From: a bacterium OM1 bin76
Lineage (GTDB): Bacteria > Actinomycetota > Acidimicrobiia > Spongiisociales > ZC4RG35
Assembly (NCBI GenBank): GCA_002238785.1
Contig: MPNA01000009.1
Coordinates: forward strand, 8,189 to 72,188
Direction: 5' to 3'
Length of the DNA stretch: 64,000 nt
The notes beneath the pieces were generated by a model. That model was not told the DNA's origin. It saw only the letters and a list, made by a program, of their open reading frames with translations, and ran no database searches. The position numbers and the translations under genes were made by a program. Positions 1 to 42,335 of the stretch are shown here, in pieces. How positions within the stretch are numbered: position 1 is the stretch's first letter; every line of letters begins with the position of its first letter.

Positions 1-1221
1 CGTACGTCTTGTTGAAGTGCTCCGAGCAACGGGCCAGGATGTGATGCTCGGCGCGGGCGAACCGGTAGAAGCGGGCGATGTCGGAGGAGTGCGGGTCGAT
101 CTCGGGGTAGCCCTGGGTCATCCACTCGGCGATCATCTTGCCCACCCCCGGGCCTTCCTTGATCCACACCGCCGCCGCCGACCAGAGGTTCTTCACCTCC
201 ACCGTCTCTCCCAGAAGCGGCATGGCGTCGGGGGTAAGGGACAGCAGGCCGTTGATGGCGTACCGGATCTCTGCCTGCGACAGGATCTCGGGCATCAACT
301 CCAGTGCATGCTCCATCTGTAGGTCGAAGTCTTCGTCTGTGAAGGGAAGTTCAGTGGGGGAGAGCAGCGACTCGCCCAGCGAGGGAATCTCATCGGGGTG
401 ATGGAAGATGGGGCGGTGGGCATAGGAACCCACTTCCATCGATCCGGCCGTCTGCCGCTCGTACATGTAGGTGTCCATATCGCGGACGATGGGGTATCCG
501 ATCTCCGAACGCGTCTGTTGCAAGACCGGAATGGGGCCGACGTCGATCATCTGGTGCACCGCGGGCGTTAGCGGGATGGTGGCGCCGGCCATCCGGGCGA
601 TCCGGGGACTCCACACCCCGCAGGCGATCACCAGATAGTCGGTCTCGATGCGTCCCTTGTCGGTCATCACCGCGTGTATCGCGCCGTTTCGGACCTCCAT
701 GCCCAGGATTTCGGTGTTGGGCAGGACGGTGAGTGCGTCCCGGGCCTGGGCTCGCTCCCGCATGATGGTTCCCGCCCGAAGCGAGTCAACCACCGTCACC
801 CCGGGACTGTAGAACCCGCCCACAATGACGTCGCGGTTGATGAAGGGCACCAATTCGAGCACCTCGTCGGGGGAGATCAGATGGGACTCGACTCCCCAGG
901 CGGTGGCGGAGGTCATCCGGCGGCGCAGTTCTTCCATGCGCTCGGAGGTGCGGGCCACCTCGATTCCCCCCGAAACCACCATGACACCCATCTCATCGTA
1001 CTGCCTGGTGGAATCTAGGGTGAGCAGGGTCATTTCCTTGGAGTGATCCACCGGAAAACAGAAATTGGAGGCATGCCCGGTGGAGCCGCCAGGGTTGGGA
1101 AGGGGACCCTTGTCGATTTGAACGATGTTCTTCCAACCCAGTTCGGCAAGGTGTCCTACCACCGAATTCCCTGCAATACCTGCTCCAATCACTATTACAT
1201 GGGCGCTGGTGGGGAAATTCA
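1..1221 (-). CDS. FAD-dependent oxidoreductase, DAO family (dimethylglycine oxidase / sarcosine dehydrogenase-like N-terminal flavin domain). Partial: the 3' end runs off the window start.
   Basis: Reverse-strand translation from ATG at 1221 gives MNFPTSAHVIVIGAGIAGNSVVGHLAELGWKNIVQIDKGPLPNPGGSTGHASNFCFPVDHSKEMT..., the GxGxxG Rossmann dinucleotide motif plus the conserved core typical of DmgO/SarDH-family amine oxidases. The frame stays open to position 1. Confidence 0.8.
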
Positions 1222-1287
1222 TGTCTCTACTCCCTATGCTGAGTAACGGTTATGTTTCTTGTGGCGGACGGTATGGTTGCGCGCATC

Positions 1288-1304
1288 GTTTACAATGTGT
1301 AAAC
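1288..1304. promoter_or_regulatory. Perfect 17-bp palindrome GTTTACAatgTGTAAAC in the divergent promoter region; candidate operator.
   Basis: Read directly in the sequence. The arms are 7 bp with a 3-bp spacer. It is AT-rich in a GC-rich intergenic region between the divergently transcribed DAO oxidoreductase and the corrinoid methyltransferase operon. Confidence 0.45.
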
Positions 1305-1403
1305 TCTACCGGGCGCTGCGGTGAAGGTTTGTCATCAAAGTTCTTTGCCGTAAGGCGCATCAACTCCACCGTCCCTGGCCTTCTCATTCCAACAGGTGAA
1401 ATC

Positions 1404-2090
1404 ATGAGCGAAGATTTTGACCTTGCTTCTCTTGACGACGAGGAGCTCGTCTACCAAATGCATGACGATCTCTACGACGGCTTAGCCGAGGAGATCGCCG
1501 AGGGAACCGAAATTCTACTGGCGCGGTCCTGGGATGCCCAAAAGGTGCTGAACGATGCCCTCGTAGAGGGCATGAGAGTCGTAGGGATCGACTTCCGCGA
1601 CGGGATCCTGTTCGTACCCGAAGTCCTGCTGGCCGCCAAGGCCATGAAGGCCGGGATGGAGATTCTCCGCCCCATACTCTCGGCTTCGGGCGTCGAGTCG
1701 GTCGGCAAGGTGGTGATCGGCACCGTGAAGGGAGACATCCACGACATCGGCAAGAACTTGGTGGGCATGATGCTGGAGGGGGCGGGGTTCGAAGTGTTCG
1801 ACTTGGGGATCAACACCGATGCGCAGGAGTTCTTGGATGCGCTGGAGGAGCACGATCCCGACATCCTGGGCATGTCGGCGCTGTTGACCACCACCATGCC
1901 CTACATGAAAGTGGTCATCGACGCCCTCAAGGAAGAGGGCATCAGGGAGGAGATCGTCGTGATGGTGGGCGGGGCGCCCCTGAACGAGGAATTCGGGGAG
2001 GCGGTGGGGGCCGACGCCTACTGCCGGGACGCAGCCGTGGCGGCCGAGACTGCCAAGACCCTGGTCGAAAAGAAACGCGCCAATGCCTAG
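1404..2090 (+). CDS. Corrinoid (cobalamin-binding) protein of a methyltransferase system (MtgC/MttC-like).
   Basis: B12-binding DxHxxG motif (GDIHDIGKNLV) followed by a Rossmann-like B12 domain. An N-terminal helical cap (EELVYQMHDDLYDGLAEE). RBS aggtga before the ATG at 1404. Confidence 0.8.
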   Translation: MSEDFDLASLDDEELVYQMHDDLYDGLAEEIAEGTEILLARSWDAQKVLNDALVEGMRVVGIDFRDGILFVPEVLLAAKAMKAGMEILRPILSASGVESVGKVVIGTVKGDIHDIGKNLVGMMLEGAGFEVFDLGINTDAQEFLDALEEHDPDILGMSALLTTTMPYMKVVIDALKEEGIREEIVVMVGGAPLNEEFGEAVGADAYCRDAAVAAETAKTLVEKKRANA

Positions 2091-2105
2091 GCGCGGGACG
2101 GGGAG

Positions 2106-3032
2106 ATGACCGAGACCGTCGTCTCCTCCGCCACCCGGGAGTGGGTGATAGGACCGAACCGGCCCTTTACCATTATCGGGGAGCGCATCAACCCCACCGG
2201 CCGCAAGCTCTTGGCGCAGGAGATGAAGAGCGGCGACTTCAGCCGCGTGGAGGCCGATGCCCTGGCTCAGGTGGGGGCCGGGGCTCACATGCTGGATGTC
2301 AATGCCGGAATTCCCCTGGCGGATGAGCCGGCCATCCTGGCTGAAGCCATCAAACTGGTCCAATCTCTCACCGATGTCCCGCTCTCCATCGACTCCTCCA
2401 TCATCGAGGCGCTGGAGGCCGGCTTGGCGGTATATCAGGGAAAGGCTCTGGTCAACTCGGTGACGGGGGAGGACGAAGTGTTGGAGAGGGTGTTGCCGCT
2501 GGTTGCCAAACACGGCGCCGCGGTGGTGGCGATTTCAAATGATGAAACCGGAATCTCCGAGGACCCCGATGTTCGTTTCGAAGTAGCCAAGAAGATCGTC
2601 TCCCGAGCCTCAGACTATGGCATTCCGGCTTCCGATGTGGTGGTCGATCCGTTGGTGATGCCGATCGGTGCGTTGGCGCACGCCGGCCGCCAGGTCTTTC
2701 ACATCCTGGGGCGGTTGAGAGATGAATTGCGGGTCAACTCCACCTGCGGGGCCTCCAACGTCAGCTTCGGCCTCCCCAACCGGGAAACCATAAACTCGGC
2801 CTTTCTCACCATGGCGATCGGCGCCGGGTTGACGTCGGCGATAACCAATCCGCTTCACACCCAAGTGCGTTCGGCCTTGATGGCGGCCGATGTGATGATG
2901 GCCAATGACCCGGAGTGCGCACGCTGGATCAGGGCCAACCGCGCTTCCCCTCCTCCGGGCAGCAGGGGTGCCCGTCGAGGAGGTGGTCGTCGGCGGCGAA
3001 CCGGACGAGGCGCCGATGGCCGAACCCGTTGA
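2106..3032 (+). CDS. Methyltetrahydrofolate:corrinoid methyltransferase (pterin-binding, DHPS-like TIM barrel; MtgA/AcsE/MtrH-like).
   Basis: Pterin-binding signature: IIGERINPTGRK ... MLDVNAG ... ALVNSV ... NVSFGLPNR. It directly follows the corrinoid protein. The C-terminal tail after ARWIRANRA is low-complexity and probably read-through, so the true stop may lie earlier. Confidence 0.75.
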   Translation: MTETVVSSATREWVIGPNRPFTIIGERINPTGRKLLAQEMKSGDFSRVEADALAQVGAGAHMLDVNAGIPLADEPAILAEAIKLVQSLTDVPLSIDSSIIEALEAGLAVYQGKALVNSVTGEDEVLERVLPLVAKHGAAVVAISNDETGISEDPDVRFEVAKKIVSRASDYGIPASDVVVDPLVMPIGALAHAGRQVFHILGRLRDELRVNSTCGASNVSFGLPNRETINSAFLTMAIGAGLTSAITNPLHTQVRSALMAADVMMANDPECARWIRANRASPPPGSRGARRGGGRRRRTGRGADGRTR

Positions 3033-5007
3033 ACTCCGGATAATTTTCACCCCGTCGGGTCGGAGGGGTCGGGTTCCCCGGGGGACGACGGTCCTGGAGG
3101 CGGCCCGGATGGTGGGCGCCGATCTTGCCTCTTTGTGCGGTGGTCGGGGTATCTGCGGGCGTTGCCAGATGACTCCGGTGTTTGGAGAGTTTGCCAAGCA
3201 CGGTATCTCGGTGGGACCGGAGGCGCTGACCGAGTGGTCTGAGACGGAGTCTTCCTATCGCAAGCGGCGGGGACTGGCCGCCGACCGGAGGCTGGGATGC
3301 ATGGCGAAGGTGCTGGAGGACGTGCTGGTCGATGTACCGCCCGAAAGCCAGACCCACCGGCAGGTGGTGAGAAAAGAAGTCGATGTCGGAAAGCTGCGCC
3401 TGGACCCGGTGACCACTCTTCATTATGTGGTGGTCGAGGCGCCGACTCTGGAACATGCTCCCGGAGACGCCCAACGGTTGGTGGCGGCGCTTGCAGAGCA
3501 GTGGGCCCTGACCGGCGTGGCGGTGGGCGCCGAGGTTCTGGGGATGCTGCAGGATGCGGTGCGGGCAGGCGATGGCAAAGTCACGGCCGCGGTGCGGGAT
3601 CGACGAGAGGTGGTGTCGGTGTGGCCCGGTTTTCGCGAGCAGGTGCTGGGGGTGGCGGTGGATGTGGGATCGACCACCATCGCCGGGCATCTGGCCGACC
3701 TGACCACCGGGGAGGTAATTGCCTCCCAGGGTTTGATGAACCCCCAGGTCAGATTGGGAGAGGACCTGATGAGCCGGGTCTCATACGTAGCGTTGAACGA
3801 GGACGGAGCGCAGAGGCTCACTTCCCTGGTCCGATCGGCGGTTTCGGAGTTGTGCTCGGATCTATTGGAGCAGGCCGGCGCTGATCGGGAGTCGGTGCTG
3901 GAGATGGTGGTGGTGGGCAACCCCATCATGCATCATCTGTTCTTGGGCTTGGACGTCCGTCCTTTGGGAGAGGCGCCCTTCACCCTGGCCACCGACGGAC
4001 CGGTCGAGATTCCGGCTTCGCGGGTTGGGATCGAACTGAACGAGGCGACACGCATCTACCTCCTACCGTGCATCGCCGGACATGTGGGCGCCGATGCGGC
4101 GGGGATGATTCTGTCGGAACGGCCCTATGGGGCCGACGAGATCATGTTGTTGTGCGACATCGGCACCAATGCCGAGATAGTGCTGGGGAATGCGGATCGG
4201 CTTCTGGCAGCCTCCAGCCCAACCGGTCCGGCGTTGGAGGGCGCTCAGATTTCCTCGGGGCAGAGAGCGGCGCCGGGGGCCATAGAGCGAGTCCGCATCG
4301 ATCCCCAGACCCTAGAGCCGCGGATCAAGGTGATCGGGGTGGGCCCCTGGTCCGATGAGCCCGGGTTCTCCGAACAGGAAGCAGAGATCGGGGTAACCGG
4401 CATTTGCGGATCGGGAATCATTGAAGTTCTCTCCGAGTTGGCGGCGGCGGGGGTGATTCTGGCCGACGGAAGAATCGACGGCGCCAGCAGCGAACGGTCC
4501 CCCCGGGTGGTGAGGGACGGTCGCACCTATTCCTACATCCTGTGGGACAAGGGTGCGGTCGTGCGAATAACGCAAAACGATGTCCGGGCGGTGCAGTTGG
4601 CCAAGGCGGCCCTGCTGGCCGGCGCCAGGTTGTTGATGGATCATCTGGGATCCGACCAGGTGGATCGCATCCGTCTTGCCGGGGCCTTCGGGTCCCACCT
4701 GAGCGCTTCCCACTCCATGGAACTCGGACTCATCCCCCGGATCGAAACCCACCGTGCTACATCGGCGGGGAACGCGGCGGGGACGGGGGCGTTGATGTGC
4801 CTGTTGAGCGGAGAAAGCCGCCGCGAGATAGAACTAGTCATAAGTGGAGTTGAAAAAATCGAGACTGCCATAGAGTCCCGCTTCCAGGAGCACTTTGTGG
4901 CGTCCATGTCCTTTCCCGGCGCCAGCAAGGGCCGGTCCGACCCGAGACGGAGGTCATCACGCAGAAACCGGCGGAGGACTTCCAGCAGAACAGAAGAGAG
5001 GCCGTGA
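3016..5007 (+). CDS. Corrinoid reductive activase (RACo-like: N-terminal 2Fe-2S ferredoxin domain plus ASKHA-fold ATPase).
   Basis: Plant-type ferredoxin cysteines (CGGRGICGRCQ ... C). DUF4445/ASKHA core (VDVGSTTIAG, LCDIGTNAEIVLG, GICGSGIIE). The ATG at 3016 fits better than the upstream in-frame start at 2905, which would overlap the previous gene by 111 nt. Confidence 0.7.
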   Translation: MAEPVELRIIFTPSGRRGRVPRGTTVLEAARMVGADLASLCGGRGICGRCQMTPVFGEFAKHGISVGPEALTEWSETESSYRKRRGLAADRRLGCMAKVLEDVLVDVPPESQTHRQVVRKEVDVGKLRLDPVTTLHYVVVEAPTLEHAPGDAQRLVAALAEQWALTGVAVGAEVLGMLQDAVRAGDGKVTAAVRDRREVVSVWPGFREQVLGVAVDVGSTTIAGHLADLTTGEVIASQGLMNPQVRLGEDLMSRVSYVALNEDGAQRLTSLVRSAVSELCSDLLEQAGADRESVLEMVVVGNPIMHHLFLGLDVRPLGEAPFTLATDGPVEIPASRVGIELNEATRIYLLPCIAGHVGADAAGMILSERPYGADEIMLLCDIGTNAEIVLGNADRLLAASSPTGPALEGAQISSGQRAAPGAIERVRIDPQTLEPRIKVIGVGPWSDEPGFSEQEAEIGVTGICGSGIIEVLSELAAAGVILADGRIDGASSERSPRVVRDGRTYSYILWDKGAVVRITQNDVRAVQLAKAALLAGARLLMDHLGSDQVDRIRLAGAFGSHLSASHSMELGLIPRIETHRATSAGNAAGTGALMCLLSGESRREIELVISGVEKIETAIESRFQEHFVASMSFPGASKGRSDPRRRSSRRNRRRTSSRTEERP

Positions 5008-5072
5008 TGAGCAGGAGAAGAAGATCAGGAGGACGGCGGGCCCGGGCGGTCGCCAGGGCGGCTGCCCAAGAG

Positions 5073-6539
5073 ATGAGAAGATCCCCCTTCCTCACCAGCA
5101 AACTCGCTCCCTATGAGGTGCTCAGCACCGAGGGTCTGGAGATAATCGAGCACAACGCAGAGACCATTCTGGAGAGGGTGGGTGTGGACATAACCGATGA
5201 GCCGGCCGTCCAGACCTTCCGGGAAGCGGGGGCCGACGTCGATGGACAGCGAGTGCGTTTCCCCCGGGGAATGTGCCGCCAGATAGTGACCGCCACCGCC
5301 CCGTCCATGTTCACCCAGGTGGCTCGCAACCCCGAGAAGTCGGTGGTGATCGGCGGCAATCACCTGGTGCTGGCGCCCGCCTATGGCTCACCTTTCGTCA
5401 GGGATCTCGATAAGGGGCGACGTTACGCCACCATCGAGGACTTCCGGAATTTCGTGAAGCTCGTTTACATGACTCCCTACCTGCACCACTCGGGGGGAAC
5501 GCTGTGCGAGCCGGTGGACGTGGCCATCCCCAAGCGCCATCTCGACATGGTGTATTCCCATTTTCGCTTCTCCGACAAGCCTCTGATGGGCTCGGTGACC
5601 GCTCCCCATCGGGCGGCCGACTCAGTGGAAATGGCAGCCTTGGTGTTCGGGGAGGATTTCTTGGAAGAGAACACGGTGATCATGGGGCTCTGCAACGCCA
5701 ACTCGCCTCTCACCTGGGACAAAGCCATGCTTGGTTCAGCCCGCGAGTACGCCAGCCGGAACCAGGCGGCCATAATCACGCCCTTCATCCTGGCCGGGGC
5801 GATGGCGCCGGTTACGGTGGCGGGAGTGGCGGCCCAGACCCTGGCCGAGGCGCTGGTGGCGCTGTCCTACACCCAGTTGGTCAGACCGGGAGCGCCGGTG
5901 ATCTTCGGGTCCTTCGCCTCCTCGCTCTCCATGCAGTCCGGGGCGCCGACCTTTGGCACCCCCGAACCCTCGCTGACGCTGTTCGTTCTGGCCCAACTCG
6001 GTCGGCGGTTGGGGATTCCATTCCGGTCCGGCGGAAACCTGACAGCTTCGAAAGTTCCCGATGCCCAGGCTGCTTACGAGTCGGCTGCGACTTTCCAGCC
6101 CACCTTGCTGGCGGGAATCAATTTCGTGCTGCATTCGGCAGGCTGGCTCGAGGGTGGATTGACCATGGGATACGAGAAATTCATCCTCGACTCCGACCAG
6201 TGCGGAATGGCCGAGGCTCTGCTGTCGGGGGTGGATCTCTCCGAGAACGGACAAGCGCTGGAGTCGGTGATCGAGACCGGACCGGGCCAGCATCACCTGG
6301 GAACCGCGCACACCCTGGCCAATTTCGAGACTGCCTTCTACCGGTCTTTCACGGCCGACAACAACAGTTACGAGCAGTGGTCGGAGGAAGGGTCGTTGCG
6401 ATCGGTGGAGCGCGCCAACTCCCTTTGGAAGAAGTCACTGGCCGATTATGAGCCTCCGGCCATCGACGAGTCGGTCGACGAGGCTCTGCAGGAATACGTA
6501 GTCCGCAAGAAGCAGACCTACCCGGACTTCGAGGCGTAA
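5073..6539 (+). CDS. MttB-superfamily (trimethylamine methyltransferase family, non-pyrrolysine) quaternary-amine:corrinoid methyltransferase. Glycine betaine or carnitine is the likely substrate.
   Basis: Full-length MttB-family TIM-barrel sequence (RRSPFL...YEVLSTEGLEIIEHNAETILERVGV ... TPFILAGAMAPVT ...) with no in-frame TAG. An alternative start at 5004 overlaps the upstream stop as ATGA, but that Arg-rich leader looks spurious. Confidence 0.85.
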   Translation: MRRSPFLTSKLAPYEVLSTEGLEIIEHNAETILERVGVDITDEPAVQTFREAGADVDGQRVRFPRGMCRQIVTATAPSMFTQVARNPEKSVVIGGNHLVLAPAYGSPFVRDLDKGRRYATIEDFRNFVKLVYMTPYLHHSGGTLCEPVDVAIPKRHLDMVYSHFRFSDKPLMGSVTAPHRAADSVEMAALVFGEDFLEENTVIMGLCNANSPLTWDKAMLGSAREYASRNQAAIITPFILAGAMAPVTVAGVAAQTLAEALVALSYTQLVRPGAPVIFGSFASSLSMQSGAPTFGTPEPSLTLFVLAQLGRRLGIPFRSGGNLTASKVPDAQAAYESAATFQPTLLAGINFVLHSAGWLEGGLTMGYEKFILDSDQCGMAEALLSGVDLSENGQALESVIETGPGQHHLGTAHTLANFETAFYRSFTADNNSYEQWSEEGSLRSVERANSLWKKSLADYEPPAIDESVDEALQEYVVRKKQTYPDFEA

Positions 6540-7414
6540 TGGCCTCCTCCGACTATGCCGGGCGGCTGGAAGGCTTGAGTCAGTCCACCCGTTCGGCGAT
6601 CGCACAGGTCCTGAGCAAGGTCCGCTTCGAGATAATCCCACTCAAGAACGCCGTCGCCCAGGCCGGGCACCTCCCGCGGGGGGCCGTGATCACCGTAACC
6701 GCCTCCCCCAACAAGGGAATGGAGGCCACCATGGACCTGGCTGCAGAACTGGCCGAATCCGGGTTCGACGTCACCCCCCATCTTTCGGCCCGCCTGCATC
6801 GAGACCGGGCTCATCTGGCCGCGACCCTGGACAAGGCCGCCGAGTTGGGCATTCGCCGAGCGTTCGTGGTGGGTGGAGACCACCTCCATCCCGGTGAATT
6901 CTTCGACGGCCTCTCTCTGCTTGAGGCCATGAATGAGATCGGGCACCCCTTCGAGGAAGTGGGCATTCCCGCCTACCCGGAAGGACATCCGGTGATTCCG
7001 GATGCCAAGCTGGAGCAGGCGCTGCTGGACAAGCAGCCCTATGCTCACCATCTCGCCACCCAAATGTGCTTTGATGCCGGCGCCATCCGCTCCTTTCTGT
7101 CTGAGGCCCGACGCCGCCGGATCGGACTCCCGGCCTTCCTCGGCGTGCCGGGAGTGGGCGGACGGATGAAGCTGCTGCAGATCTCGGCGCGGATCGGGGT
7201 GGGCGACTCGGTCAGGTTCCTCTCCAAGAACGCCAAGGTGGTCACCAAACTGCTGGGGCCGGGGGGATACGACCCCGGGGAATTGCTGGAGGGCCTGGGC
7301 GACAGGTTATCCGATCCCGTCATGGCGATTCAGGGGTTGCATGTCTACACCTTCAACCGCTGCGAGGCGACCGAGGCTTGGCGCAGGGAGTACCTCGAAG
7401 CTCTGAGCCAGTGA
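6539..7414 (+). CDS. metF: 5,10-methylenetetrahydrofolate reductase
   Basis: MTHFR family (ELSPPK-like start region, FVVGGD, ATQMCFD). TAATG stop/start overlap with the upstream methyltransferase. Confidence 0.8.
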   Translation: MASSDYAGRLEGLSQSTRSAIAQVLSKVRFEIIPLKNAVAQAGHLPRGAVITVTASPNKGMEATMDLAAELAESGFDVTPHLSARLHRDRAHLAATLDKAAELGIRRAFVVGGDHLHPGEFFDGLSLLEAMNEIGHPFEEVGIPAYPEGHPVIPDAKLEQALLDKQPYAHHLATQMCFDAGAIRSFLSEARRRRIGLPAFLGVPGVGGRMKLLQISARIGVGDSVRFLSKNAKVVTKLLGPGGYDPGELLEGLGDRLSDPVMAIQGLHVYTFNRCEATEAWRREYLEALSQ

Positions 7415-7445: not shown

Positions 7446-8570
7446 ATGCTGGTTGACGTGGCCTGGGTGGTGGTGGGCATGGCGGCGCTCATTATCGGGG
7501 CGGAGCGCCTCGTAAGCGCTGCGGAGCGGTTGGCCCACTACTGGGGGATGTCCACTGTCTTGATCGGAGCGGTGGTGGTGGGGCTGGGCACCTCCCTTCC
7601 GGAGATGCTCATCTCCGGTCTGGCGGCCGCCCGCCCGGACGGGCTGGACCTGGCCGCCGGCAACATCGTGGGATCCAATATCGCCAATCTCTCCCTGGTG
7701 CTGGGCGTCTCCATAATCCTCGCTCCGCTCAAAAACGTCACCTCGGATCTGCGGCGCGAGTGGCTGGCCATGCTGGCGGGATCGTTGGTGCTGGTGATTG
7801 CGGCTTGGAACAACGCGTTGTCCCGGCCCAACGGGGTGATTCTGGCGCTTGCGATGGTGGTGGCCCTGATGCTGCTGGTGCGATGGTCCCGGGACATGCA
7901 CTCCATCGAAGGGAAGACGCAAGCCACTGAAGACCCCGGACCTGCCTATTCGGAAGAGGTCGGCGGGTGGTTGGAGAAGGTGAAGGCGAGGAAGGAGTTG
8001 AGTCTTGGGGGCCTGCGCCTTCGCATCAGCCTGGTCCTGTGGAGGGAAATCCTGATGGCCCTGGTGTCGCTGGTCCTGACACTGTGGGGGGCCGACCGGT
8101 TGGTGGACGGCGCCACCGGCATCGCCGAACGGCTGAACATATCCGGAGGACTGGTGGGCCTCACCCTGGTTGCACTGGGCACCTCCCTTCCCGAGTTGGC
8201 CACCGCGGTGGCTGCCGCCCGGCACGGGAACACTGAACTGGTGATAGGGAACGTGCTGGGTTCCAATCTCTTCAATGCCCTGGCAGTGGGTGGCATCGCA
8301 GGACTGGTCGGGGACGGGGCCTTTACCGGCAATTTCCGGGGGAGCCTGTTGTGGATGATGGGCGCCGCGGTGGCGGCCGGGGGGATCGCCAACGGCCTCC
8401 GTGGGTTTGACCAACTGCGACCGTTCCGCAGCAGCAACCGTGTTCTGCAGATGATGGGGGCTGCTCTGGCGACGGGAGACGTTGTCTTTTCCCGATGGTC
8501 CCAAAGCAGGATTGCGGGAGTGGTTCTGGTGGCCTTTTACCCGCTGGCCCTGTTGCTGGCCGGTCTCTAG
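7446..8570 (+). CDS. Ca2+/cation antiporter (CaCA, Na+/Ca2+ exchanger family)
   Basis: Two alpha-repeat signatures, GTSLPEMLIS and GTSLPELATA. About 10 TM helices. Internal duplication. Confidence 0.8.
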   Translation: MLVDVAWVVVGMAALIIGAERLVSAAERLAHYWGMSTVLIGAVVVGLGTSLPEMLISGLAAARPDGLDLAAGNIVGSNIANLSLVLGVSIILAPLKNVTSDLRREWLAMLAGSLVLVIAAWNNALSRPNGVILALAMVVALMLLVRWSRDMHSIEGKTQATEDPGPAYSEEVGGWLEKVKARKELSLGGLRLRISLVLWREILMALVSLVLTLWGADRLVDGATGIAERLNISGGLVGLTLVALGTSLPELATAVAAARHGNTELVIGNVLGSNLFNALAVGGIAGLVGDGAFTGNFRGSLLWMMGAAVAAGGIANGLRGFDQLRPFRSSNRVLQMMGAALATGDVVFSRWSQSRIAGVVLVAFYPLALLLAGL

Positions 8571-8571
8571 T

Positions 8572-9354
8572 TCACAGGCGGGATCGAGACCCGGAGGGAA
8601 AGCTGGCAAGCTCGGCGGTTAATTGGTCGGCCACACTTCGTATCAGCCGCCCTATCTCCATGCCGTCTGTGTTGCCGGGGAATCGATAGCTGGGACCGTG
8701 GAGGCCCAAAGCCGCCACTATCTTCCCATGGGGGCCGTACACCGGGGCCGCCACCCCGGAGATGTCCACCGCGAACTCTTCGTGAGCCCAGACAAACCCA
8801 TCGCGACGAGCGGCTTGAAGTCGGCACTGCAAGATGTGGGGATCGAGGATGGTGCTGGCGGTAACCCGGACCAGGTCCTGTCTGAGATAGTCCCGCAATC
8901 GATCCGGTTCCCATGCCGCCAGGCAGACCTGACCGGTGGCGAGGGTATGGAGTGGGAAGGTGTGGCCTGTCCAATCCTGAACCTGCACGGTTCGATCAGC
9001 CACCACCTGGCTGATGTACAGCACCTTCTTGCCCTCCGGCACCGCCAGGGCGGCGTCCTCCCCCAATCGGGAGACCAGATTCTCCAAGTGGGGCCGACCC
9101 AACTGCTTCAAGACTTGGGGGGAGGTTCCTCTGCCGGCCAGCACCTCCAATCCGGGGCCAACCCGATACCGACCTCGCCGGCCTACCTGCTCCACCATTT
9201 CGAGGTGCTCGAGGGTGACCAGCATGCGAGAGACGGAACTCTTCGGCAAGCGGGTGGCCTTGGTTATCTGGGCCAAGCTGGCACTGCGCGGGGAGGCCAC
9301 CACCACCTGCAATACCGCAAAGGCCCGCTCGACTGCTCTGACAGGGGCGGTCAC
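8572..9354 (-). CDS. IclR-family transcriptional regulator, probable regulator of the divergent carnitine genes.
   Basis: N-terminal wHTH (VERAFAVLQVV...SLAQITKATRLPKSSVSRMLVTLE) plus an IclR effector domain. I take the GTG at 9354 as the start. The longer 436-aa ORF to 9882 has an N-terminal extension with no protein-like character. Confidence 0.7.
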   Translation of the reverse strand: MTAPVRAVERAFAVLQVVVASPRSASLAQITKATRLPKSSVSRMLVTLEHLEMVEQVGRRGRYRVGPGLEVLAGRGTSPQVLKQLGRPHLENLVSRLGEDAALAVPEGKKVLYISQVVADRTVQVQDWTGHTFPLHTLATGQVCLAAWEPDRLRDYLRQDLVRVTASTILDPHILQCRLQAARRDGFVWAHEEFAVDISGVAAPVYGPHGKIVAALGLHGPSYRFPGNTDGMEIGRLIRSVADQLTAELASFPSGSRSRL

Positions 9355-9447: not shown

Positions 9448-10386
9448 ATGGCGGTTCACAGCAAGGTGGTTCTCACCTGCGCAGTTACGGGGAGTTCCCA
9501 CACTCCCACCATGAACATAGGTCTGCCGGTCACCCCAGAGGAAATGGTGTCCCAGTCGGTGGAGGCGCATTCGGCCGGAGCGGCGGTGATCCACATCCAC
9601 GCCCGTGATCCTCGCAATGGCAGGCCCAGCGCCGACGTGGGTTTGTTCCGGGAGTATTGCGTGGGCATTAAAGAGCAATGCGATGCGGTGATCAGCATCA
9701 CCACCGGGGGCGCCACCGGCCAGACCATCGAGGAACGCCTGGCAGTGATCAAGGCGTTGCAGCCCGAATTGGCCACGTGCAACCTGGGGACCATGAACTA
9801 CGGGCTTTTTCAGATGATCCCCAGGTACGAAGGTCGATGGAAGCACGACTGGGAGGAGGCCTTCCTGGAGTCCACTCGCCATGAACCTTTCGTGAACCGG
9901 TTTTCGGATATCGAGTACATGCTCACCGAGCTAACTGAGGAGACGGGTTGCCGCTTCGAGTTCGAGGCTTATGACGTGGGGCATCTCTACACGCTGGCCT
10001 ATTACGCCGATCAGGGCCTGGTGAAGCCCCCCATATTCATGCAGTTCGTGGTGGGCACCCTGGGGGGCATAGGGCCTGACATCGAGAACGTGGTGGTGAT
10101 GAAGCAGACTGCCGACCGCCTGTTCGGGACCGACATCGAGTGGTCGGTGCTGGGAGGAGGTCGGTTCCAGTTCGATATCGTCACCGCCGGGGCGGTTCTC
10201 GGAGGCCATGTGAGAGTTGGTCTGGAGGATGGGATATACCTGCGTCGGGGGCGATTGGCCGACAACAATGCCGAGCAGGTGGCCAAGATGGTCCGGATCC
10301 TCAACGAGTTGTCGCGCGAGACGGCGACCTCCGCCGAGGCTCGGGAGATACTGGATCTCAAGGGCCTCCACAATGTGGCGTTCTGA
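9448..10386 (+). CDS. BKACE-family beta-keto acid cleavage enzyme (DUF849, 3-keto-5-aminohexanoate cleavage enzyme-like), probably the dehydrocarnitine cleavage enzyme.
   Basis: DUF849 TIM-barrel signature (LTCAVTGS, AAVIHIHARDP, ITTGGATG, GGHVRVGLED). RBS aaggag 8 nt upstream. Context: a dehydrogenase/thioesterase fusion follows it. Confidence 0.8.
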   Translation: MAVHSKVVLTCAVTGSSHTPTMNIGLPVTPEEMVSQSVEAHSAGAAVIHIHARDPRNGRPSADVGLFREYCVGIKEQCDAVISITTGGATGQTIEERLAVIKALQPELATCNLGTMNYGLFQMIPRYEGRWKHDWEEAFLESTRHEPFVNRFSDIEYMLTELTEETGCRFEFEAYDVGHLYTLAYYADQGLVKPPIFMQFVVGTLGGIGPDIENVVVMKQTADRLFGTDIEWSVLGGGRFQFDIVTAGAVLGGHVRVGLEDGIYLRRGRLADNNAEQVAKMVRILNELSRETATSAEAREILDLKGLHNVAF

Positions 10387-10482
10387 TAGTCAAGCGCCTT
10401 GGATAAAGGGCGCGGTTGACCTGTGGCAGCCGTGAGAGACGAGGCGGGAGGGGCCGAGGATCGATTCCGCTCTCAAGTCGGG

Positions 10483-11949
10483 GTGGTGGGTCTGGTGGGC
10501 ACTGGGGTCATCGGGCGAGGATGGGCGGTGAGGGCGCTGTCCAGGGGGTGGGAAGTGGTGGCCACCGATCCCGCTCCCGGGGCGGGGGAGGAGTTGGTGG
10601 CATTCGTGGAGCGGGTCTGGCCCGCTTCCATGGCGCTGGGCCAGCATCCCGACGCCCGGCCCGACCGGGTCCAGTTCGTCGGAACCGTCGAGGAGGTGGC
10701 GGCCCGGGCGGATCTGGTGGTGGAGTCGGTGCCCGAGAGAGAGCACCTCAAGAGAGAAGTGGCCGCCCAGATCGACGCGGCTACTCCTTCCGACGTCTTG
10801 ATCTGCTCCAGTTCCTCGGGGCTACTCCCCAGCCGCCTGCAGGCCGGCCTGCGTCATCCGGGGCGGTATCTGATAGCCCACCCCTTCAACCCTGTCTACC
10901 TGCTGCCTCTGGTGGAACTGTGCGGCGGACGCCTAACCAACCCGGGCGCGTTAGAGACCGCCGGGTCGATCTACCGGGACCTGGGCATGCATCCCCTGGT
11001 GATTCGCAACGAAGTGGAGGGGTACCTCTCCGATCGGCTCCAGGAGGCTTTGTGGCGGGAAGCGCTGTGGCTGGTCAATGACGGAGTGGCCACCACGGAG
11101 GAACTGGATGAGGCCATCATTTACGGCCCGGGCCTGCGCTGGGCGGCGATGGGGACCATGCTCACCTTTCACCTGGCCGGCGGCGAGGGCGGGATGCGGC
11201 ACATGCTGGAGCAGTTCGGCCCGGCCCTGGAACTTCCCTGGACGGCGCTGGTGGCGCCGCCTCTGACCGATCGGCTGATCGAGGCGGTGGTGGAAGGAGT
11301 CGAGCAGCAGGCGGGGGGAAGAAGCGTCAGGGAATTGGAACGGCTTCGAGACCAGTACCTGATCTCGGTGATGCGGGCGCTGCGGCCGCACAACCTGGGC
11401 GCCGGACGGGTGTTGGCAGACCGGGAGGCGATCCGGTTGGCGGCGGGCGCCAAAACCTGGCATCCGGGTTCCGAGGTGGAGGCGCCCCTGGAGTTGTATC
11501 GCTGCGGGGTGGAACCTGATTGGGTGGATTACAACGGCCACATGACCGAGAGCGCCTACCTGGCGGCCTTCGGCTGGGCTTCGGACGCTCTGTTCCGCTA
11601 TGTGGGGATCGACGAACAGTATCGGGCCGAGGGCCACTCCTTCTATACCGTTGAGACCCATATCCACTATCGGCGGGAAGCTTCCGTTCACCAGGATCTT
11701 TTCTTCACCACCCAACTGTTGGGGGTGGATCAAAAGCGCCTTCACATCTTCCACACCATGTTCGACGCCGACCGCAACCGGCTCTCTTCCACCGAACAGA
11801 TGCTCCTGCATGTCGACACACAGGCCGGATGTGCGGCGCCCATCCGGTCCGAACCGGCCCGGGCCTTGGCTGAGATCGCTCGGGCCCACCAAACGCTTCC
11901 GGTTCCGCCCGAGGTGGGCGCCCGAATGACCCTTGACAGGCAAGGCTGA
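10483..11949 (+). CDS. L-carnitine dehydrogenase-like 3-hydroxyacyl-CoA dehydrogenase fused to a C-terminal hotdog (4HBT) thioesterase
   Basis: N-terminal NAD Rossmann (VGLVGTGVIGRGWA), 3HCDH N and C domains, then a hotdog thioesterase (VDYNGHMTESAYLAAF ... HIFHTMF). The start is uncertain: GTG at 10483 or 10423. Confidence 0.7.
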   Translation: MVGLVGTGVIGRGWAVRALSRGWEVVATDPAPGAGEELVAFVERVWPASMALGQHPDARPDRVQFVGTVEEVAARADLVVESVPEREHLKREVAAQIDAATPSDVLICSSSSGLLPSRLQAGLRHPGRYLIAHPFNPVYLLPLVELCGGRLTNPGALETAGSIYRDLGMHPLVIRNEVEGYLSDRLQEALWREALWLVNDGVATTEELDEAIIYGPGLRWAAMGTMLTFHLAGGEGGMRHMLEQFGPALELPWTALVAPPLTDRLIEAVVEGVEQQAGGRSVRELERLRDQYLISVMRALRPHNLGAGRVLADREAIRLAAGAKTWHPGSEVEAPLELYRCGVEPDWVDYNGHMTESAYLAAFGWASDALFRYVGIDEQYRAEGHSFYTVETHIHYRREASVHQDLFFTTQLLGVDQKRLHIFHTMFDADRNRLSSTEQMLLHVDTQAGCAAPIRSEPARALAEIARAHQTLPVPPEVGARMTLDRQG

Positions 11950-11965
11950 CAGAAAGGGAAATCCG

Positions 11966-13138
11966 ATGCACTTTGCTCTCACCGACGAACAGGAGTTGAT
12001 CGTCGCCACAGTTGCGGAGTTCACCGAAAGGGAGTTGATGCCCCACGAGGAAGAGGTGGAGCGACTGGGCCGCGTCCCCGGCCAACTGGCCGCGGGCATC
12101 AAGAAGAAGGCCATCGAGGCGGGGATCTTCTCGGCCAACATGCCGGTGGAGGTGGGGGGCGCCGGTCTTGACAACCTGACCATGGCGTTGGTGGAGAAGG
12201 AACTCGGCAAGACGGCGTATGCCCTGCATCATCTGGTGGCCCGCCCCTCCAACATCCTGCTGGCCTGCGTCGGAGAGCAAAGGGACCGGTACCTGTACCC
12301 CACGGTGGCCGGCCGGCGGATGGAGGCGTTGGCCATGAGCGAACCTGACGCCGGTTCCGATCTGCGGGGGATGAAGTGCCGGGCGGTCCGGGACGGGGAC
12401 GAATACGTGATCCGGGGGGTCAAGCACTTCATTTCCCACGGGGACATCTGTGACTATGTGATCCTGTTCGCCGCCACCGGCGAGGAGTCACCCCAGGATG
12501 CGGGAGGGGGGAGGGCGCCCCGGAAGATCACGGCCTTCCTGGTGGACGTGGGGACACCGGGCTTCGAGGTGCAAGAGGGCTACCGATGCGTCTCTCACCG
12601 CGGATACAACAATGCCGTTTTCAGCTTTGACGACTGCCGGATTCCGGCCTCCCAGATTCTGGGCGAGGAGCACCAGGGCTTCGAGGTGGCCAACACCTGG
12701 CTGGGAGGTACCCGTCTCGCGGTGGCCGCCAACTGCCTGGGCAGAGCAGAGCGGGCCATGGGACTGGCAACCGAGTGGGCTGCCACTCGCACCCAGTTCG
12801 GACAGACCATCGGTCGCTTTCAGGGGGTCTCGTTCAAGCTGGCGGACATGGCCACGCAGATGGCCGCTGCCGAGCTTCTGACGCTGCGGGCTGCCTGGAA
12901 GGCCGACCGGGGCGAGATGAGTTCCGCCGACGCCGCCATGGCCAAACTGGCTGCCACCGAAATGCTCGCCCATGTGACCGATGAGGCCATCCAGATCTTT
13001 GGCGGGATGGGCCTGATGGGCGAGTTGCCGTTGGAACGCATGTGGCGGGACGCCCGAGTGGAACGCATCTGGGACGGCACCTCCGAGATCCAGCGTCACA
13101 TCATCTCCCGGTCGATTCTCCGTCCCCTGGGAGGCTGA
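11966..13138 (+). CDS. Acyl-CoA dehydrogenase
   Basis: ACAD N, middle and C domains (LAMSEPDAGSDL, catalytic-base region IFGGMG..E). ATG at 11966 with an aagggaa RBS. Confidence 0.8.
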   Translation: MHFALTDEQELIVATVAEFTERELMPHEEEVERLGRVPGQLAAGIKKKAIEAGIFSANMPVEVGGAGLDNLTMALVEKELGKTAYALHHLVARPSNILLACVGEQRDRYLYPTVAGRRMEALAMSEPDAGSDLRGMKCRAVRDGDEYVIRGVKHFISHGDICDYVILFAATGEESPQDAGGGRAPRKITAFLVDVGTPGFEVQEGYRCVSHRGYNNAVFSFDDCRIPASQILGEEHQGFEVANTWLGGTRLAVAANCLGRAERAMGLATEWAATRTQFGQTIGRFQGVSFKLADMATQMAAAELLTLRAAWKADRGEMSSADAAMAKLAATEMLAHVTDEAIQIFGGMGLMGELPLERMWRDARVERIWDGTSEIQRHIISRSILRPLGG

Positions 13139-13143
13139 CGACC

Positions 13144-15234
13144 TTGTCGGCATTGGCCAGGTTGCTGAGGCCGAGGACGGTGGCCCTGGTGGGTGGGGGC
13201 TTGTTGGACCAGTTGGTGGACTCCTGTCGGCAGATCGGATTCGCCGGCGAAGTGTGGCCGGTGAATCCCCATCGTCGCCAGGTGTCGGGTCTTCGGTGCT
13301 TCCCTGCCCTCGAGGACCTTCCAAGTCCTCCCGACGCGGTCTTTCTGGCCGTAAACCGCAGGCGGACCATTGAAGCGGTGGAGACGCTTGCCAGGATGGG
13401 AGCGGGGTCGGCGGTGTGCTATGCGTCCCTCTTCGCGGAGCATGGTGAAGATGGATCCGGTCACCAGCGCCGGTTGGTGGAAGCGGCGGGAGGAATGCCG
13501 ATTCTGGGCCCCAACTGCTACGGGCTGATCAATGCGCTGGACCGGGTGGCGCTGTGGCCGGATCAGTCGGGGTGTCATCCCGTCCCAGAGGGAATGGCGC
13601 TCATCTCCCAAAGCGGCAATGTCGGACTGAACATGACGTTCCAGCGGCGCCGGCTTCCGGTCTCGCACCTGGTGTCGGTGGGAAATCAGGCAGTGGTGGG
13701 GATAGAAGACGTGATGGCGGAACTCCTCGAGGACCCCCGGGTCAAGGGCATCGGGTTGTTCCTGGAGGCGGTCAGGGATCCCGGTCGGTTCCTGGATGTG
13801 ACGCTCCGCGCCCTATCGGCTCGGATTCCGGTGGTGGCCCTCCTGGTGGGCAAGTCGCGCCGGGGGGCGGAGATCGCCCGCAGTCACACCGCTTCGATGA
13901 GCGGAATGGCCGACGCCTACCGGGCGCTGTTCGACCGGGGAGGGGTGATCGGGGTGAGCACCCTGCCGGAATTGCTGGAGACCCTGGCAGTGATGGTCGG
14001 CGCCGGACCTCTGCCCGGCAACCGGATCGTTTCCATGTCCTGTTCGGGAGGGGAGGCGTCATACGTGGCGGACCTGGCCGACGGGCGCCACTTGGACTTT
14101 GCTCCCTTCCCCCAGGGACAGCAGCGGAGCGTGAGCCGGATTCTGGACGGAAGGGTGGCGGTCGGGAATCCGTTGGACTACCACACTTTCATCTGGGACG
14201 ACCGGCGCCGCCTGGAGCAGTTGTTCGGTGAGGTCATGGCCGGTCCACAGGACGCCACCATGCTGGTTTTGGACGTTCCTGAAGCGAAAGGGGACTTCTC
14301 GGCTTTCCGGAAGACCGCCCGGGCCATGATCGCCGCCGGTGCGGCTTGCGGGCAACCCGCCCCGGGGGTGTCCCGCCTGCCCGGAAACCCCGCCCGCCGA
14401 GGGGCCCGGGCGCGGGGGGGCGGGGGGGTCGCCGGCCTGCCGGAAAACCTCTCCGGCGAAGTGGCCCGGGAGTTGGCGGACGGTGGGGTGACTGCGGTGC
14501 GAGGGATCGAGGAAGCGTTGGCCGGGCTGGAGGCGGCCGTGCGGTGGGGCGAGCGGGTGCGTGCCGGCGCACCTCATTACCCGGCGCCGGTCCCTCCCCC
14601 TGGTCACCGGACGATCCACCTCAACGAAGTCCAGGCCAAGGCTCGCCTCGCCTCCTGGGGTGTGCCGGTTCCCCGGGGCGCCGCGGCGCCGGCGGAGAGA
14701 TTGGGCGCGGCGGCCGAGGAGATCGGGTATCCCTTGGTGGTCAAGGTGCTGGGCTTTGATCACAAGACGGAGCGGGGAGGGATCCGGGCGGGCATGGCGA
14801 CACCCCGGGATCTGGATGAGGCTGTCACGAGCATGTCAGAGGGGTACCAGGGACTCTTCCTGGTCGAGGAGATGGTTGGCGAGGTGGTCGCCGAATTGCT
14901 GGTCAGCGTCCGGCGCCAGTGGCCGGTCGGTTGGCTGGTCACCCTGGGCGGGGGAGGGGTGCTGGCCGAGTTGCTGGATGATCTCGCCCACTTCCTGGCG
15001 CCGGTCGGCCGTGGGGAGGTCGTGGAGGCCTTGGAGACACTCAGAGTTGGCCGACTGCTGGCAGGCTATCGAGGTGGGGCTCCCGCCGACCTCGGGGTGT
15101 GCGCAACGGTGATCTGCAACCTGGTAAACGGGGCCCTGGGTGATGGTGATGTGGTGGAGATGGAGGTGAATCCCCTGCTGGTCACGGCTTCGGAAGCGGT
15201 GGCGGTGGACGCACTGTTGAGCGTGACTCATTGA
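13144..15234 (+). CDS. Acyl-CoA synthetase, NDP-forming (acetate--CoA ligase family: CoA-binding plus succinyl-CoA synthetase-like plus ATP-grasp domains)
   Basis: CoA-binding Rossmann (TVALVGGG ... PVNP), ligase-CoA domain (ILGPNCYG), C-terminal ATP-grasp. TTG start at 13144 just after the ACAD stop. It contains a G-rich low-complexity segment at 14395-14420. Confidence 0.65.
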   Translation: MSALARLLRPRTVALVGGGLLDQLVDSCRQIGFAGEVWPVNPHRRQVSGLRCFPALEDLPSPPDAVFLAVNRRRTIEAVETLARMGAGSAVCYASLFAEHGEDGSGHQRRLVEAAGGMPILGPNCYGLINALDRVALWPDQSGCHPVPEGMALISQSGNVGLNMTFQRRRLPVSHLVSVGNQAVVGIEDVMAELLEDPRVKGIGLFLEAVRDPGRFLDVTLRALSARIPVVALLVGKSRRGAEIARSHTASMSGMADAYRALFDRGGVIGVSTLPELLETLAVMVGAGPLPGNRIVSMSCSGGEASYVADLADGRHLDFAPFPQGQQRSVSRILDGRVAVGNPLDYHTFIWDDRRRLEQLFGEVMAGPQDATMLVLDVPEAKGDFSAFRKTARAMIAAGAACGQPAPGVSRLPGNPARRGARARGGGGVAGLPENLSGEVARELADGGVTAVRGIEEALAGLEAAVRWGERVRAGAPHYPAPVPPPGHRTIHLNEVQAKARLASWGVPVPRGAAAPAERLGAAAEEIGYPLVVKVLGFDHKTERGGIRAGMATPRDLDEAVTSMSEGYQGLFLVEEMVGEVVAELLVSVRRQWPVGWLVTLGGGGVLAELLDDLAHFLAPVGRGEVVEALETLRVGRLLAGYRGGAPADLGVCATVICNLVNGALGDGDVVEMEVNPLLVTASEAVAVDALLSVTH

Positions 15235-18480: not shown

Positions 18481-18592
18481 GTTTGCTACAAGAGTCCCAC
18501 CTGATGGGATTATTGCCCAGATCAAGTAACCGTGGCGTAGAGAATCTGGTTAAATTTTGTTAAGACAAAGACCGACGCGAAAGGAGAATCGC

Positions 18593-19581: not shown

Positions 19582-19984
19582 ACTCGTTGCCCGGCCAATC
19601 ACGGCAGATGACGTTCCATAGGGTGATGTTTTGCCATCCGGGACGGCGGGGACCTCCCGGTAAACTCGGATAGAGCGAGAGGAGAAGGTTGGCGGGAGTC
19701 AAAAAGCAAAGAAGGCGCTATGCCGTGGGATGGTTGGGGCTTGCGGTGTTCCTCATCGTTGCCGAGGAGGCGGCTGACATCGAATTCCTGGGGGAGGCGC
19801 TGCTCGGTCTGGTGTGCATCGTCCTGATCGCCACCTCGGTTGGTGAGAGTCCCAGGGCCGCAACGGAGGTGCCGGCCGAGGATGCTGACGCCGCGAGGAT
19901 GATGGGTACGCCATCGCTCTGAGTGCTCGCCGGCAGTCACGGTTAGAGGTTGGGAAGGGCCTTTCATGGGCAGGCGGTTGAGTC

Positions 19985-22101: not shown

Positions 22102-22245
22102 GCACTATTCGAGGGGTGTTTCCGGCTGGTCGGTCTCCAGGAACGCCACCATGGCGTCGGCGGTTGCTGCGGCTGCCACCTCCACGTAACCGGATGTGGC
22201 GAACAACCTTGCCTCGGCGGCGCGGGGTCGGAATCGGTGAATTGT
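22102..22245 (-). pseudogene. Remnant C-terminal fragment of a paralogous amidase gene
   Basis: About 100 nt at 22124-22225 is about 80% identical to 20958-21059, the 3' end of the amidase gene. On the minus strand it encodes ...AEARLFATSGYVEVAAAATADAMVAFLETDQPETPLE*, compared with ...AEARLFATEEYLNVAAAATADAIVAFLETDRPG...ETPLE* in the intact gene. Confidence 0.5.
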
Positions 22246-22270
22246 CATACCGGGTTCATACACTGCCCTT

Positions 22271-42224: not shown

Positions 42225-42234
42225 GGCCAAGCAA

Positions 42235-42335
42235 ACACGGGAGCTCGGTGAGACCGGGCTGAGAGGGAGGATGGATTCCTCCGACCGTTAGCACCTGATC
42301 CGGGTAATGCCGGCGAAGGAAGCTTTCGTTGGCAA
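42235..42335 (+). promoter_or_regulatory. TPP (THI-box) riboswitch
   Basis: Contains the conserved CUGAGA element and ACCUGAUCCGGGUAAUGCCGGCGAAGG (the pyrimidine-sensor / J3-2 consensus), immediately upstream of the thiamine-type ABC SBP. Confidence 0.8.

Follow-up and report, generated by a model that had tools for sequence, protein, structure and literature searches.

A five-gene operon of a sponge-occurring Acidimicrobiia lineage, predicted to encode an aerobic-type, cobalamin-dependent glycine betaine demethylase

Which methylated amine is the substrate of a cobalamin-dependent methyltransferase of the MttB superfamily whose genes are found outside the classical anaerobic setting? The question is raised by an operon at positions 1404-7414 of the 64,000-nucleotide stretch of DNA analyzed here (the window; contig MPNA01000009.1, positions 8,189 to 72,188, of the Acidimicrobiia bacterium OM1 bin76, phylum Actinomycetota). 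An initial annotation of the window had described the operon as a system for corrinoid-dependent demethylation of quaternary amines, a description supported by the gene identities and by a precedent in roseobacters; it had left the substrate open, and had asked whether a second route, by way of betaine--homocysteine S-methyltransferase (BHMT), coexists with the first. As presented below, the operon probably encodes an aerobic-type cobalamin-dependent glycine betaine demethylase, set in a catabolic island that leads from carnitine through glycine betaine and dimethylglycine to sarcosine. Such systems have been known since 2025; what is new here is an actinobacterial, sponge-associated member, the substrate of which we infer from its genes, as well as a set of arginine-rich protein termini unreported in the literature searched.

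Gene content of the operon

Pfam and NCBIfam scans, combined with direct reading of the sequence, placed five genes on the forward strand. The first (1404-2090) encodes an mtgC-like corrinoid protein of 228 amino acids (aa) with B12-binding_2 and B12-binding domains. It is followed by genes for an mtgD-like methyl-tetrahydrofolate (methyl-THF):corrinoid methyltransferase (2106-3032; 308 aa; PF00809, PRK07535) and a RACo-type ATP-dependent reductive activase of corrinoid proteins (3016-5007; 663 aa; RACo Pfam domains), both with an Arg-rich C-terminal tail, then for an mtgB-like, non-pyrrolysine MttB-superfamily methyltransferase with an Arg-rich N-terminus (5007-6539; 510 aa; PF06253), and finally for a metF2-like methylenetetrahydrofolate reductase (MTHFR) of the S6MTHFR type, a predicted methyl-THF oxidizer (6539-7414; 291 aa; PF02219, 7XG9). 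This is the five-gene set proposed by the initial annotation, and all of its members were recovered in place with very strong family matches.

The gap between mtgC and mtgD (2090-2106) measures 15 nt, and the mtgD and RACo genes overlap by 17 nt. At the RACo/MttB junction the sequence reads GTGATG, in which TGA and ATG share one nucleotide (or GTGA, given a GTG start), and at the MttB/MetF junction it reads TAATG, so that metF2 is translationally coupled to mttB. The junctions thus differ slightly from the overlaps cited earlier as signs of tight coupling (ATGA and TAATG). The two junctions and the 17-nt overlap indicate an operon-like, translationally coupled arrangement, and positions 1404-7414 are confirmed as a genuine five-gene operon.

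The corrinoid protein carries DIHDIG at aa 111-116, followed by SxL and GG, as in the His-on B12 motif; the predicted DxHxxG signature and its His ligand are thus present on inspection. The best match of MtgC in the PDB is 1Y80, and the protein scores below the cut-offs of both NCBIfam MtgC models (216 vs 370 and 173 vs 310). MtgD scores 346 bits with PRK07535 (cut-off 259), 144 bits with the metH model and only 22 bits with the MtrH-family model; by these scores it is of the MetH/MeTr pterin-binding type (Pterin_bind), outside the MtrH family, to which we take the MtgA of Desulfitobacterium hafniense to belong.

The activase contains the linker, middle and C-terminal RACo Pfam domains and aligns over its full length to RACo of C. 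hydrogenoformans (3ZYY, 287 bits). The motif LCGGRGICGRC...C is found at its N-terminus, and four cysteines (Cys41/47/50/95) fit a 2Fe-2S site. The architecture is thus that of the C. hydrogenoformans protein (3ZYY/4C1N), with N-terminal 2Fe-2S, linker, middle and ASKHA ATPase domains; the differences are an extra Arg-rich C-terminal tail of ~29 aa and a predicted client that is a small MtgC-type protein rather than the corrinoid iron-sulfur protein.

The MttB homolog matches PF06253 with 724 bits, and its open reading frame (ORF) contains no internal stop codon. A trimethylamine methyltransferase of the pyrrolysine type was considered and rejected, as there is no in-frame UAG and the TIGR02369 score is 250 bits, compared to a cut-off of 525; MttB of M. 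barkeri matches over the C-terminal half only, with 103 bits. The view that this is a non-pyrrolysine member of the superfamily is borne out by the uninterrupted frame and the low TIGR02369 score.

For the last gene, the simple label MetF holds in part: the product belongs to the MTHFR family, with a weak PF02219 match (45 bits), but its closest type is the methyl-THF-oxidizing S6MTHFR. The best solved relative is 7XG9 (109 bits over aligned residues 18-281, compared to ~27 bits for canonical MTHFRs), which is the S6MTHFR of Sphingobium lignivorans SYK-6, an enzyme that oxidizes methyl-THF without the use of NADH and has methyl-THF-generating demethylases as its partners (PMC11868366). This resemblance fits the role of a MetF2, and oxidation of methyl-THF is accordingly predicted for the operon's enzyme. 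The enzyme of the operon would likewise be paired with a methyl-THF-generating demethylase; in SYK-6 the partners are the THF-dependent aryl O-demethylases LigM and DesA, whereas in the window the partner would be a corrinoid-dependent N-demethylase.

Evidence for glycine betaine as the probable substrate

The start of the window cuts a gene that is divergently transcribed from the operon (1-1222, reverse strand). The N-terminal 407 aa that remain belong to a flavoenzyme resembling dimethylglycine/sarcosine dehydrogenase (Pfam DAO, 159 bits, and the start of FAO_M). On three contigs (L085-L087) with 100% protein identity across the compared genes, the full flavoenzyme has 833 aa with DAO, FAO_M and GCV_T domains, and its gene is followed by the genes for electron transfer flavoprotein (ETF) beta and alpha, and then by those of another ABC transporter. 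The domain architecture and the ETF genes together point to a dimethylglycine or sarcosine dehydrogenase. The initial annotation was thus right as to the DAO family and the divergent orientation, but the dimethylglycine-oxidase-like enzyme it proposed is of an ETF-linked dehydrogenase type.

On its other side the operon is followed, as also noted initially, by carnitine catabolic genes. A set that would convert carnitine to glycine betaine occupies positions 9448-15234 of the forward strand, and comprises a BKACE gene (PF05853, 331 bits), a carnitine 3-dehydrogenase (NF005716, 537 bits) with a fused 4HBT_2 thioesterase domain, an acyl-CoA dehydrogenase (ACAD domains) and an ADP-forming acyl-CoA synthetase (CoA_binding_2, Succ_CoA_lig and ATP-grasp_5). 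In view of the adjacent dehydrogenase-thioesterase fusion, the BKACE is read as the probable dehydrocarnitine cleavage enzyme; the NCBIfam name that it attracts, '3,5-dioxohexanoate:acetyl-CoA acetone transferase' (438 bits vs a cut-off of 430), was set aside. Next come the genes of an OpuA/ProU-like ABC transporter (15473-19528, +) with an ATPase (ABC_tran), a fused permease (two BPD_transp_1 domains) and an OpuAC binding protein. Taken together, the carnitine-to-betaine genes, the betaine transporters and the flanking dimethylglycine dehydrogenase favor glycine betaine, which we consider the likely substrate of the MttB homolog; it is the gene context that carries this argument.

A second betaine-uptake set, made of a ProX-like OpuAC binding protein and a BCCT transporter, is found at 60891-63637 on the reverse strand. 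The BCCT transporter scores 493 bits with a BCCT subfamily model (above its cut-off) and 547 bits with the betaine BCCT model (below its cut-off).

Comparison of the enzyme itself with solved and characterized relatives points in the same direction. Its best solved relative is 4YYC of Sinorhizobium meliloti (679 bits, 59-60% identity). The gene for 4YYC lies in a cluster that encodes an ASKHA activase, MtgD, an MTHFR, DUF1638 and MtgC; the MttB gene is divergent, and bmt and the genes of a betaine ABC transporter are close by. This is the MtgBCDE cluster of Mausz et al. (PNAS 2025, PMC12478193). Identities between the proteins of the window and those of this cluster are 75% for MtgC, 62% for MtgD, 51% for the activase, 60% for MttB and 49% for Bmt, and sequence comparison indicates that the two MttB proteins are orthologous. 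The nearest characterized enzyme is MtgB of D. hafniense (DhMtgB; 41% identity, 398 bits), a glycine betaine enzyme; the comparison thus does not refute the initial annotation, which had named a grouping with characterized enzymes of unrelated specificity as an outcome that would speak against it. Mutagenesis and a ligand-bound structure have defined Y97, R312, H348 and F356 as the betaine contacts of DhMtgB (PMC13080624), and three of these four residues are kept here, as Y126, R340 and H376, respectively.

Gene neighborhoods in other genomes were surveyed in the loci retrieved by the MttB search, and the counts given here and below hold among the matches listed. In Azoarcus (pAZKH), a 62%-identical MttB is encoded beside folD, an ETF-QO gene, betA, betB and a choline-binding protein gene. 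Of the 51 long loci of the MttB clade, 25 have a GCV_T-domain gene, 16 a full-length dehydrogenase and 12 ETF genes at a distance of up to 10 kb. A dimethylglycine-dehydrogenase-like gene also adjoins the cassette outside the lineage of the window, mostly in Acidimicrobiia (L001, L008, L014, L022, L027, L030 and L064).

In the proposed scheme, MtgB would bind glycine betaine in its TIM-barrel pocket and transfer one N-methyl group to Co(I) of MtgC, with release of dimethylglycine. MtgD would shift the methyl group from methyl-Co(III)-MtgC onto tetrahydrofolate, and MetF2 would oxidize the resulting methyl-THF to methylene-THF, destined for C1 oxidation or assimilation. MtgC oxidized to Co(II) would be re-reduced by the RACo-type activase by means of ATP and its 2Fe-2S cluster, a repair that would matter most when oxygen is present. 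The dimethylglycine product would be demethylated by the divergent ETF-linked dehydrogenase, while betaine would be produced from carnitine by the carnitine dehydrogenase/thioesterase and BKACE, or imported by the ABC and BCCT transporters.

A number of observations weigh against this assignment. The fourth betaine contact of DhMtgB, F356, aligns with G384, and a tryptophan (W380) is found at the position of I352 (HSAGWLEGGL vs HTAGILQYFM), so that the full four-residue motif is lacking; in DhMtgB, the F356L variant has a Km raised ~800-fold (PMC13080624). The idea that W380 may stand in for F356 can be raised from the alignment, and an AlphaFold2 model built from a 24-sequence alignment is unusable for this question, with a mean pLDDT (predicted local distance difference test) of 61 that drops below 50 over residues 343-409, where H376, W380 and G384 lie. 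The retained Y/R/H residues and the W380/G384 pattern are common to all 161 aligned members of the clade, 4YYC included. The GWLEGG motif is likewise present in a Leisingera paralog of 48% identity and different gene context, and it is therefore no fine marker of specificity. Nor can identity alone fix the substrate, since MtyB and MtcB are 53% identical yet act on different quaternary amines. Orthology to the genetically tested MtgB proteins of Ruegeria pomeroyi (SPO2108/SPO2134) and Phaeobacter inhibens (MtgB1, PGA1_RS07270) is indirect, and is drawn through S. meliloti. For DUF1638, a protein implicated in cobalamin reactivation in roseobacters, a tblastn search covering the 64-kb window and loci L081-L089 gave no match, whereas in cassettes of other lineages its gene lies between mtgC and mtgD in 38 of 43 (88%). 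Finally, the aerobic lifestyle is one that we infer from the ETF-linked dehydrogenases, the habitat and the roseobacter precedent, and sponge tissue can turn anoxic.

Several of these points would also suit an enzyme of the same chemistry acting on another substrate: carnitine directly, proline betaine, choline, gamma-butyrobetaine, trimethylamine or a methylated sulfur compound. Besides the loss of F356 and the divergent specificities at 53% identity, such a possibility could draw on the operon's position next to carnitine genes, and on the fact that aerobes carry up to seven MttB paralogs to which no specificity has been assigned (PMC12478193). We nevertheless consider it unlikely. The carnitine genes already yield betaine, which would make direct demethylation of carnitine redundant, and the 64-kb window has a single MttB gene. 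Further, the gene of a dimethylglycine-consuming enzyme is divergently adjacent, in an arrangement that recurs in other loci; the neighbors of the Azoarcus and S. meliloti orthologs include betA/betB, bmt and betaine transporter genes; and the residues equivalent to Y97, R312 and H348 are kept.

A possible role in methionine synthesis

The coexisting BHMT route had been raised as a question on account of a BHMT-like gene, and a gene that could be so named is indeed found 13 kb downstream of the operon, at 19982-20872 on the forward strand (PF02574). It encodes, however, an MtgE-like homocysteine S-methyltransferase, in a tail-less variant of 296 aa. The protein scores 367 bits with PRK07534, the model of the S. 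meliloti Bmt type (cut-off 338), and 162 bits against the homocysteine domain of T. maritima MetH, compared to ~59-61 bits for BHMT; the Zn-binding cysteines are retained. A true BHMT of the human/SAR11 type was rejected because of this greater proximity to MetH, and because such enzymes have ~400 aa with a C-terminal oligomerization region. The protein being far closer to the homocysteine module of MetH than to BHMT, it is regarded as MtgE-like; a separate BHMT route for betaine is unlikely, and the label 'betaine--homocysteine S-methyltransferase' is likely to mislead. For S. meliloti, 'Bmt' has similarly been recast as MtgE and assigned to a split methionine synthase as its homocysteine module (PMC12478193).

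The MtgE-like protein of the window lacks a C-terminal extension of ~40 aa and the Arg-rich tail in which it ends. The extension is also missing from all 24 close homologs of 290-310 aa, while 97.6% of 82 MtgE homologs of at least 325 aa, including S. meliloti Bmt and those of other Acidimicrobiia, carry at their C-terminal end an Arg/Lys-rich motif, ARRTRSRRRG for example. In a 99%-identical relative (L081) mtgE directly follows the CoA ligase gene, whereas in the window and in L085-L087 the OpuA-like ABC transporter lies between the two; this difference is a strain-level indel.

The presence of an mtgE-like gene allows for a mainly anabolic explanation, by which the cassette is a split cobalamin-dependent methionine synthase (MtgC, MtgD, MtgE and the activase) fed with methyl groups from betaine by MttB. 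A MetY-type homocysteine synthase gene at 25708-27180 would fit such a function, as would the mtgE-like gene 13 kb downstream. We regard this as improbable, since mtgE lies outside the operon and its product is without the Arg-rich tail seen in nearly all of the longer homologs, as well as on the MtgD, RACo and MttB proteins examined. Moreover, it is an MTHFR of the methyl-THF-oxidizing type that is translationally coupled to MttB, and catabolic genes surround the operon. The two roles are mutually compatible: alongside a catabolic glycine betaine demethylase, the MtgC/MtgD pair may run in reverse with the MtgE-like protein to give methionine.

Comparison with aerobic and anaerobic systems

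An aerobic Mtg system was demonstrated genetically in 2025 in R. pomeroyi (PMC12478193), and also in P. inhibens, and the operon is therefore no longer an open anomaly. In the aerobe R. pomeroyi, MtgC and MtgD are indispensable both to growth on glycine betaine and to the synthesis of methionine, and induction on betaine, choline and carnitine is seen for MtgB1, MtgB2, MetF2, RamA and DUF1638 (PMC12478193). In P. inhibens, the mtgB1 gbcAB double mutant is unable to grow on betaine. The operon shares with the MtgBCD(E) system of Mausz et al. a non-pyrrolysine MtgB, a stand-alone MtgC, a MetH-like MtgD, an ASKHA activase, an adjacent MetF paralog and an MtgE-type gene nearby, and in both cases carnitine and dimethylglycine catabolic genes are found alongside. 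The differences lie first in the host, which is here an uncultured, sponge-occurring Acidimicrobiia lineage (Actinomycetota) rather than a proteobacterium. Second, the five genes form one translationally coupled operon, whereas in R. pomeroyi they are scattered. Third, the window has neither DUF1638 nor the Arg-rich C-terminal extension of MtgE. Fourth, its MetF2 is of the single-subunit S6MTHFR type, in contrast to the pair of an MTHFR and an MTHFR C-terminal-domain protein in S. meliloti and in the gammaproteobacterial loci.

As a side observation, the same pair, which resembles MetF/MetV of acetogens, was seen in ten proteobacterial cassettes (L029, L035, L036, L049, L051, L053, L056, L071, L076 and L090), and the single S6MTHFR-type MetF2 in cassettes of Actinomycetota and Chloroflexota.

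With MtgABC of D. hafniense (Ticak et al. 2014; Picking et al. 2026, PMC13080624) the operon shares the MttB-family fold, the DxHxxG corrinoid protein, methyl transfer to THF and an ATP-dependent activase. It differs in the Gly and Trp substitutions described above, in the pterin-binding type of its methyltransferase, in the Arg-rich terminal extensions of MttB, MtgD and RACo, and in its gene context, which is respiratory and not fermentative or acetogenic.

Sponge tissue goes anoxic once pumping stops, the Co(I) state of corrinoids is oxygen-sensitive, and RACo was defined in anaerobes. An operon active only under anoxia, as in acetogens and Desulfitobacterium, would agree with these facts, and would render the apparent aerobic context an illusion. 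This is a most improbable explanation. Aerobic growth of R. pomeroyi on betaine requires the same cassette (PMC12478193), and the flanking ETF-linked dehydrogenase and acyl-CoA dehydrogenases require a respiratory chain; in addition, no Wood-Ljungdahl or methanogenesis genes are present in the window, and the methyltransferase is of the MetH/MeTr type. The aerobic-type demethylase remains our preferred interpretation.

At least 52 of the loci retrieved hold MtgC, MtgD, RACo and MttB together. They span four phyla, with hosts among the Acidimicrobiia, Gaiellales/Thermoleophilia, Chloroflexota (Limnocylindrales), and Alpha- and Gammaproteobacteria, and between these phyla MtgC and MtgD retain 71-82% identity. 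Of the mtgC reads from the ocean, about 5% have been assigned to Actinomycetota (PMC12478193). The MttB of the window itself is 100% identical to P0121 (MCY4649057.1, 'Acidimicrobiia bacterium'). Contigs with 100%-identical proteins over the genes compared occur in GCA_026713945.1, in two JGI metagenomes and in SRR8092555, a metagenome of the sponge Aplysina aerophoba. In relatives with an 85%-identical MttB (contigs of 0.5-2.3 Mb) the gene order is unchanged.

Non-pyrrolysine mttB transcripts and carnitine have previously been reported in A. aerophoba, and the operon offers a concrete explanation for these transcripts. It would extend the aerobic B12-dependent route of betaine demethylation to sponge-living Actinomycetota, and would link the 'carnitine guild' of sponges to a demand for B12. 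Being compact and self-contained, it is also a convenient unit for heterologous reconstitution. The interest of the locus stems less from the existence of the operon than from its lineage-specific losses and Arg-rich termini: the missing DUF1638, the tail-less MtgE, the S6MTHFR-type MetF2, the Trp in place of Phe and the Arg-rich extensions all provide handles on the assembly of the module and on its choice of substrate.

Arginine-rich termini of the corrinoid partners

In the window, Arg-rich stretches are encoded at ~2950-3032 (MtgD C-terminus), ~4920-5004 (RACo C-terminus) and 5007-5090 (MttB N-terminus). To score C-termini across the cassettes, a terminus was taken as Arg-rich if at least 4 Arg occurred in any 8 residues of the last 25. 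The motif was found in 85% of MtgD (n=52), 97% of RACo (n=59) and 4 of 5 MtgE proteins; in the control C-termini it was found in none of the MttB (0%, n=81), 11% of MetF2 (n=35) and 10% of MtgC proteins (n=48). In MttB it is the N-terminus that is Arg-rich, with the pattern RRRxGGRxAR in which GGR is invariant. Such termini recur on the partner proteins examined, across the four phyla (loci L001-L080 and L090), and fall outside the segments that align to the homologs from anaerobes (2QNE, 3ZYY and MeTr). The N-terminus of MtgC, on the other hand, is conserved and acidic (DLxxLxDEELVxQMHDDLYDGL). When the literature on corrinoid methyltransferase systems was searched for arginine-rich tails, no description came up.

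We suggest that the Arg-rich tails may act as docking peptides for the corrinoid hub. A bolder proposal, which we advance tentatively and hold to be possible rather than probable, is that the tails form a shared electrostatic docking code, through which interchangeable modules compete for one corrinoid hub; a lineage devoid of both the MtgE tail and DUF1638 would then have uncoupled methionine synthesis from the betaine demethylase.

Control region and flanking genes

The dehydrogenase gene and the operon share an intergenic region of 181 bp (1223-1403). A perfect palindrome, TTTACAATGTGTAAA, is located at 1289-1303 in this divergent promoter region; relatives with an 85%-identical MttB keep only the half GTGTAAACT. 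The palindrome was considered as an operator, a function that is not claimed here as TTTACAATGTGTAAA is missing from these relatives and from all other cassettes. A promoter and terminator scan detected no consensus promoter and gave results no better than those for shuffled sequence, and a search of the whole window with Rfam found no cobalamin riboswitch.

Beginning 32 nt past metF2 is a gene for a membrane protein of the CaCA family, similar to Na+/Ca2+ exchangers (7446-8570, +; PF01699; TIGR00367, 186 bits). It is possibly co-transcribed with the operon; its position is kept in the relatives with an 85%-identical MttB (L082-L084) and is not shared by other lineages. An IclR-family regulator (8572-9354, reverse strand; HTH_IclR and IclR_C), homologs of which adjoin mtgC in many other cassettes, is encoded divergently from the carnitine genes.

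Some features of the window bear no relation to the operon. Its sole Rfam hit is a thiamine pyrophosphate (TPP) riboswitch (42227-42338; 67 bits, above the gathering score) at the start of the ORF of a solute-binding protein (42292-43491) that presumably belongs to a thiamine-related ABC transporter. Located at 41352-42224 is a gene for the endonuclease NucS, consistent with an origin in the Actinomycetota, and at 22241-25264 one for a DinG-like helicase fused to a DEDDh exonuclease. A complete Azaca anti-phage defense system lies at 54373-60732, with scores of 398 bits for ZacA, 542 bits for ZacB and 1129 bits for ZacC in the PADLOC models.

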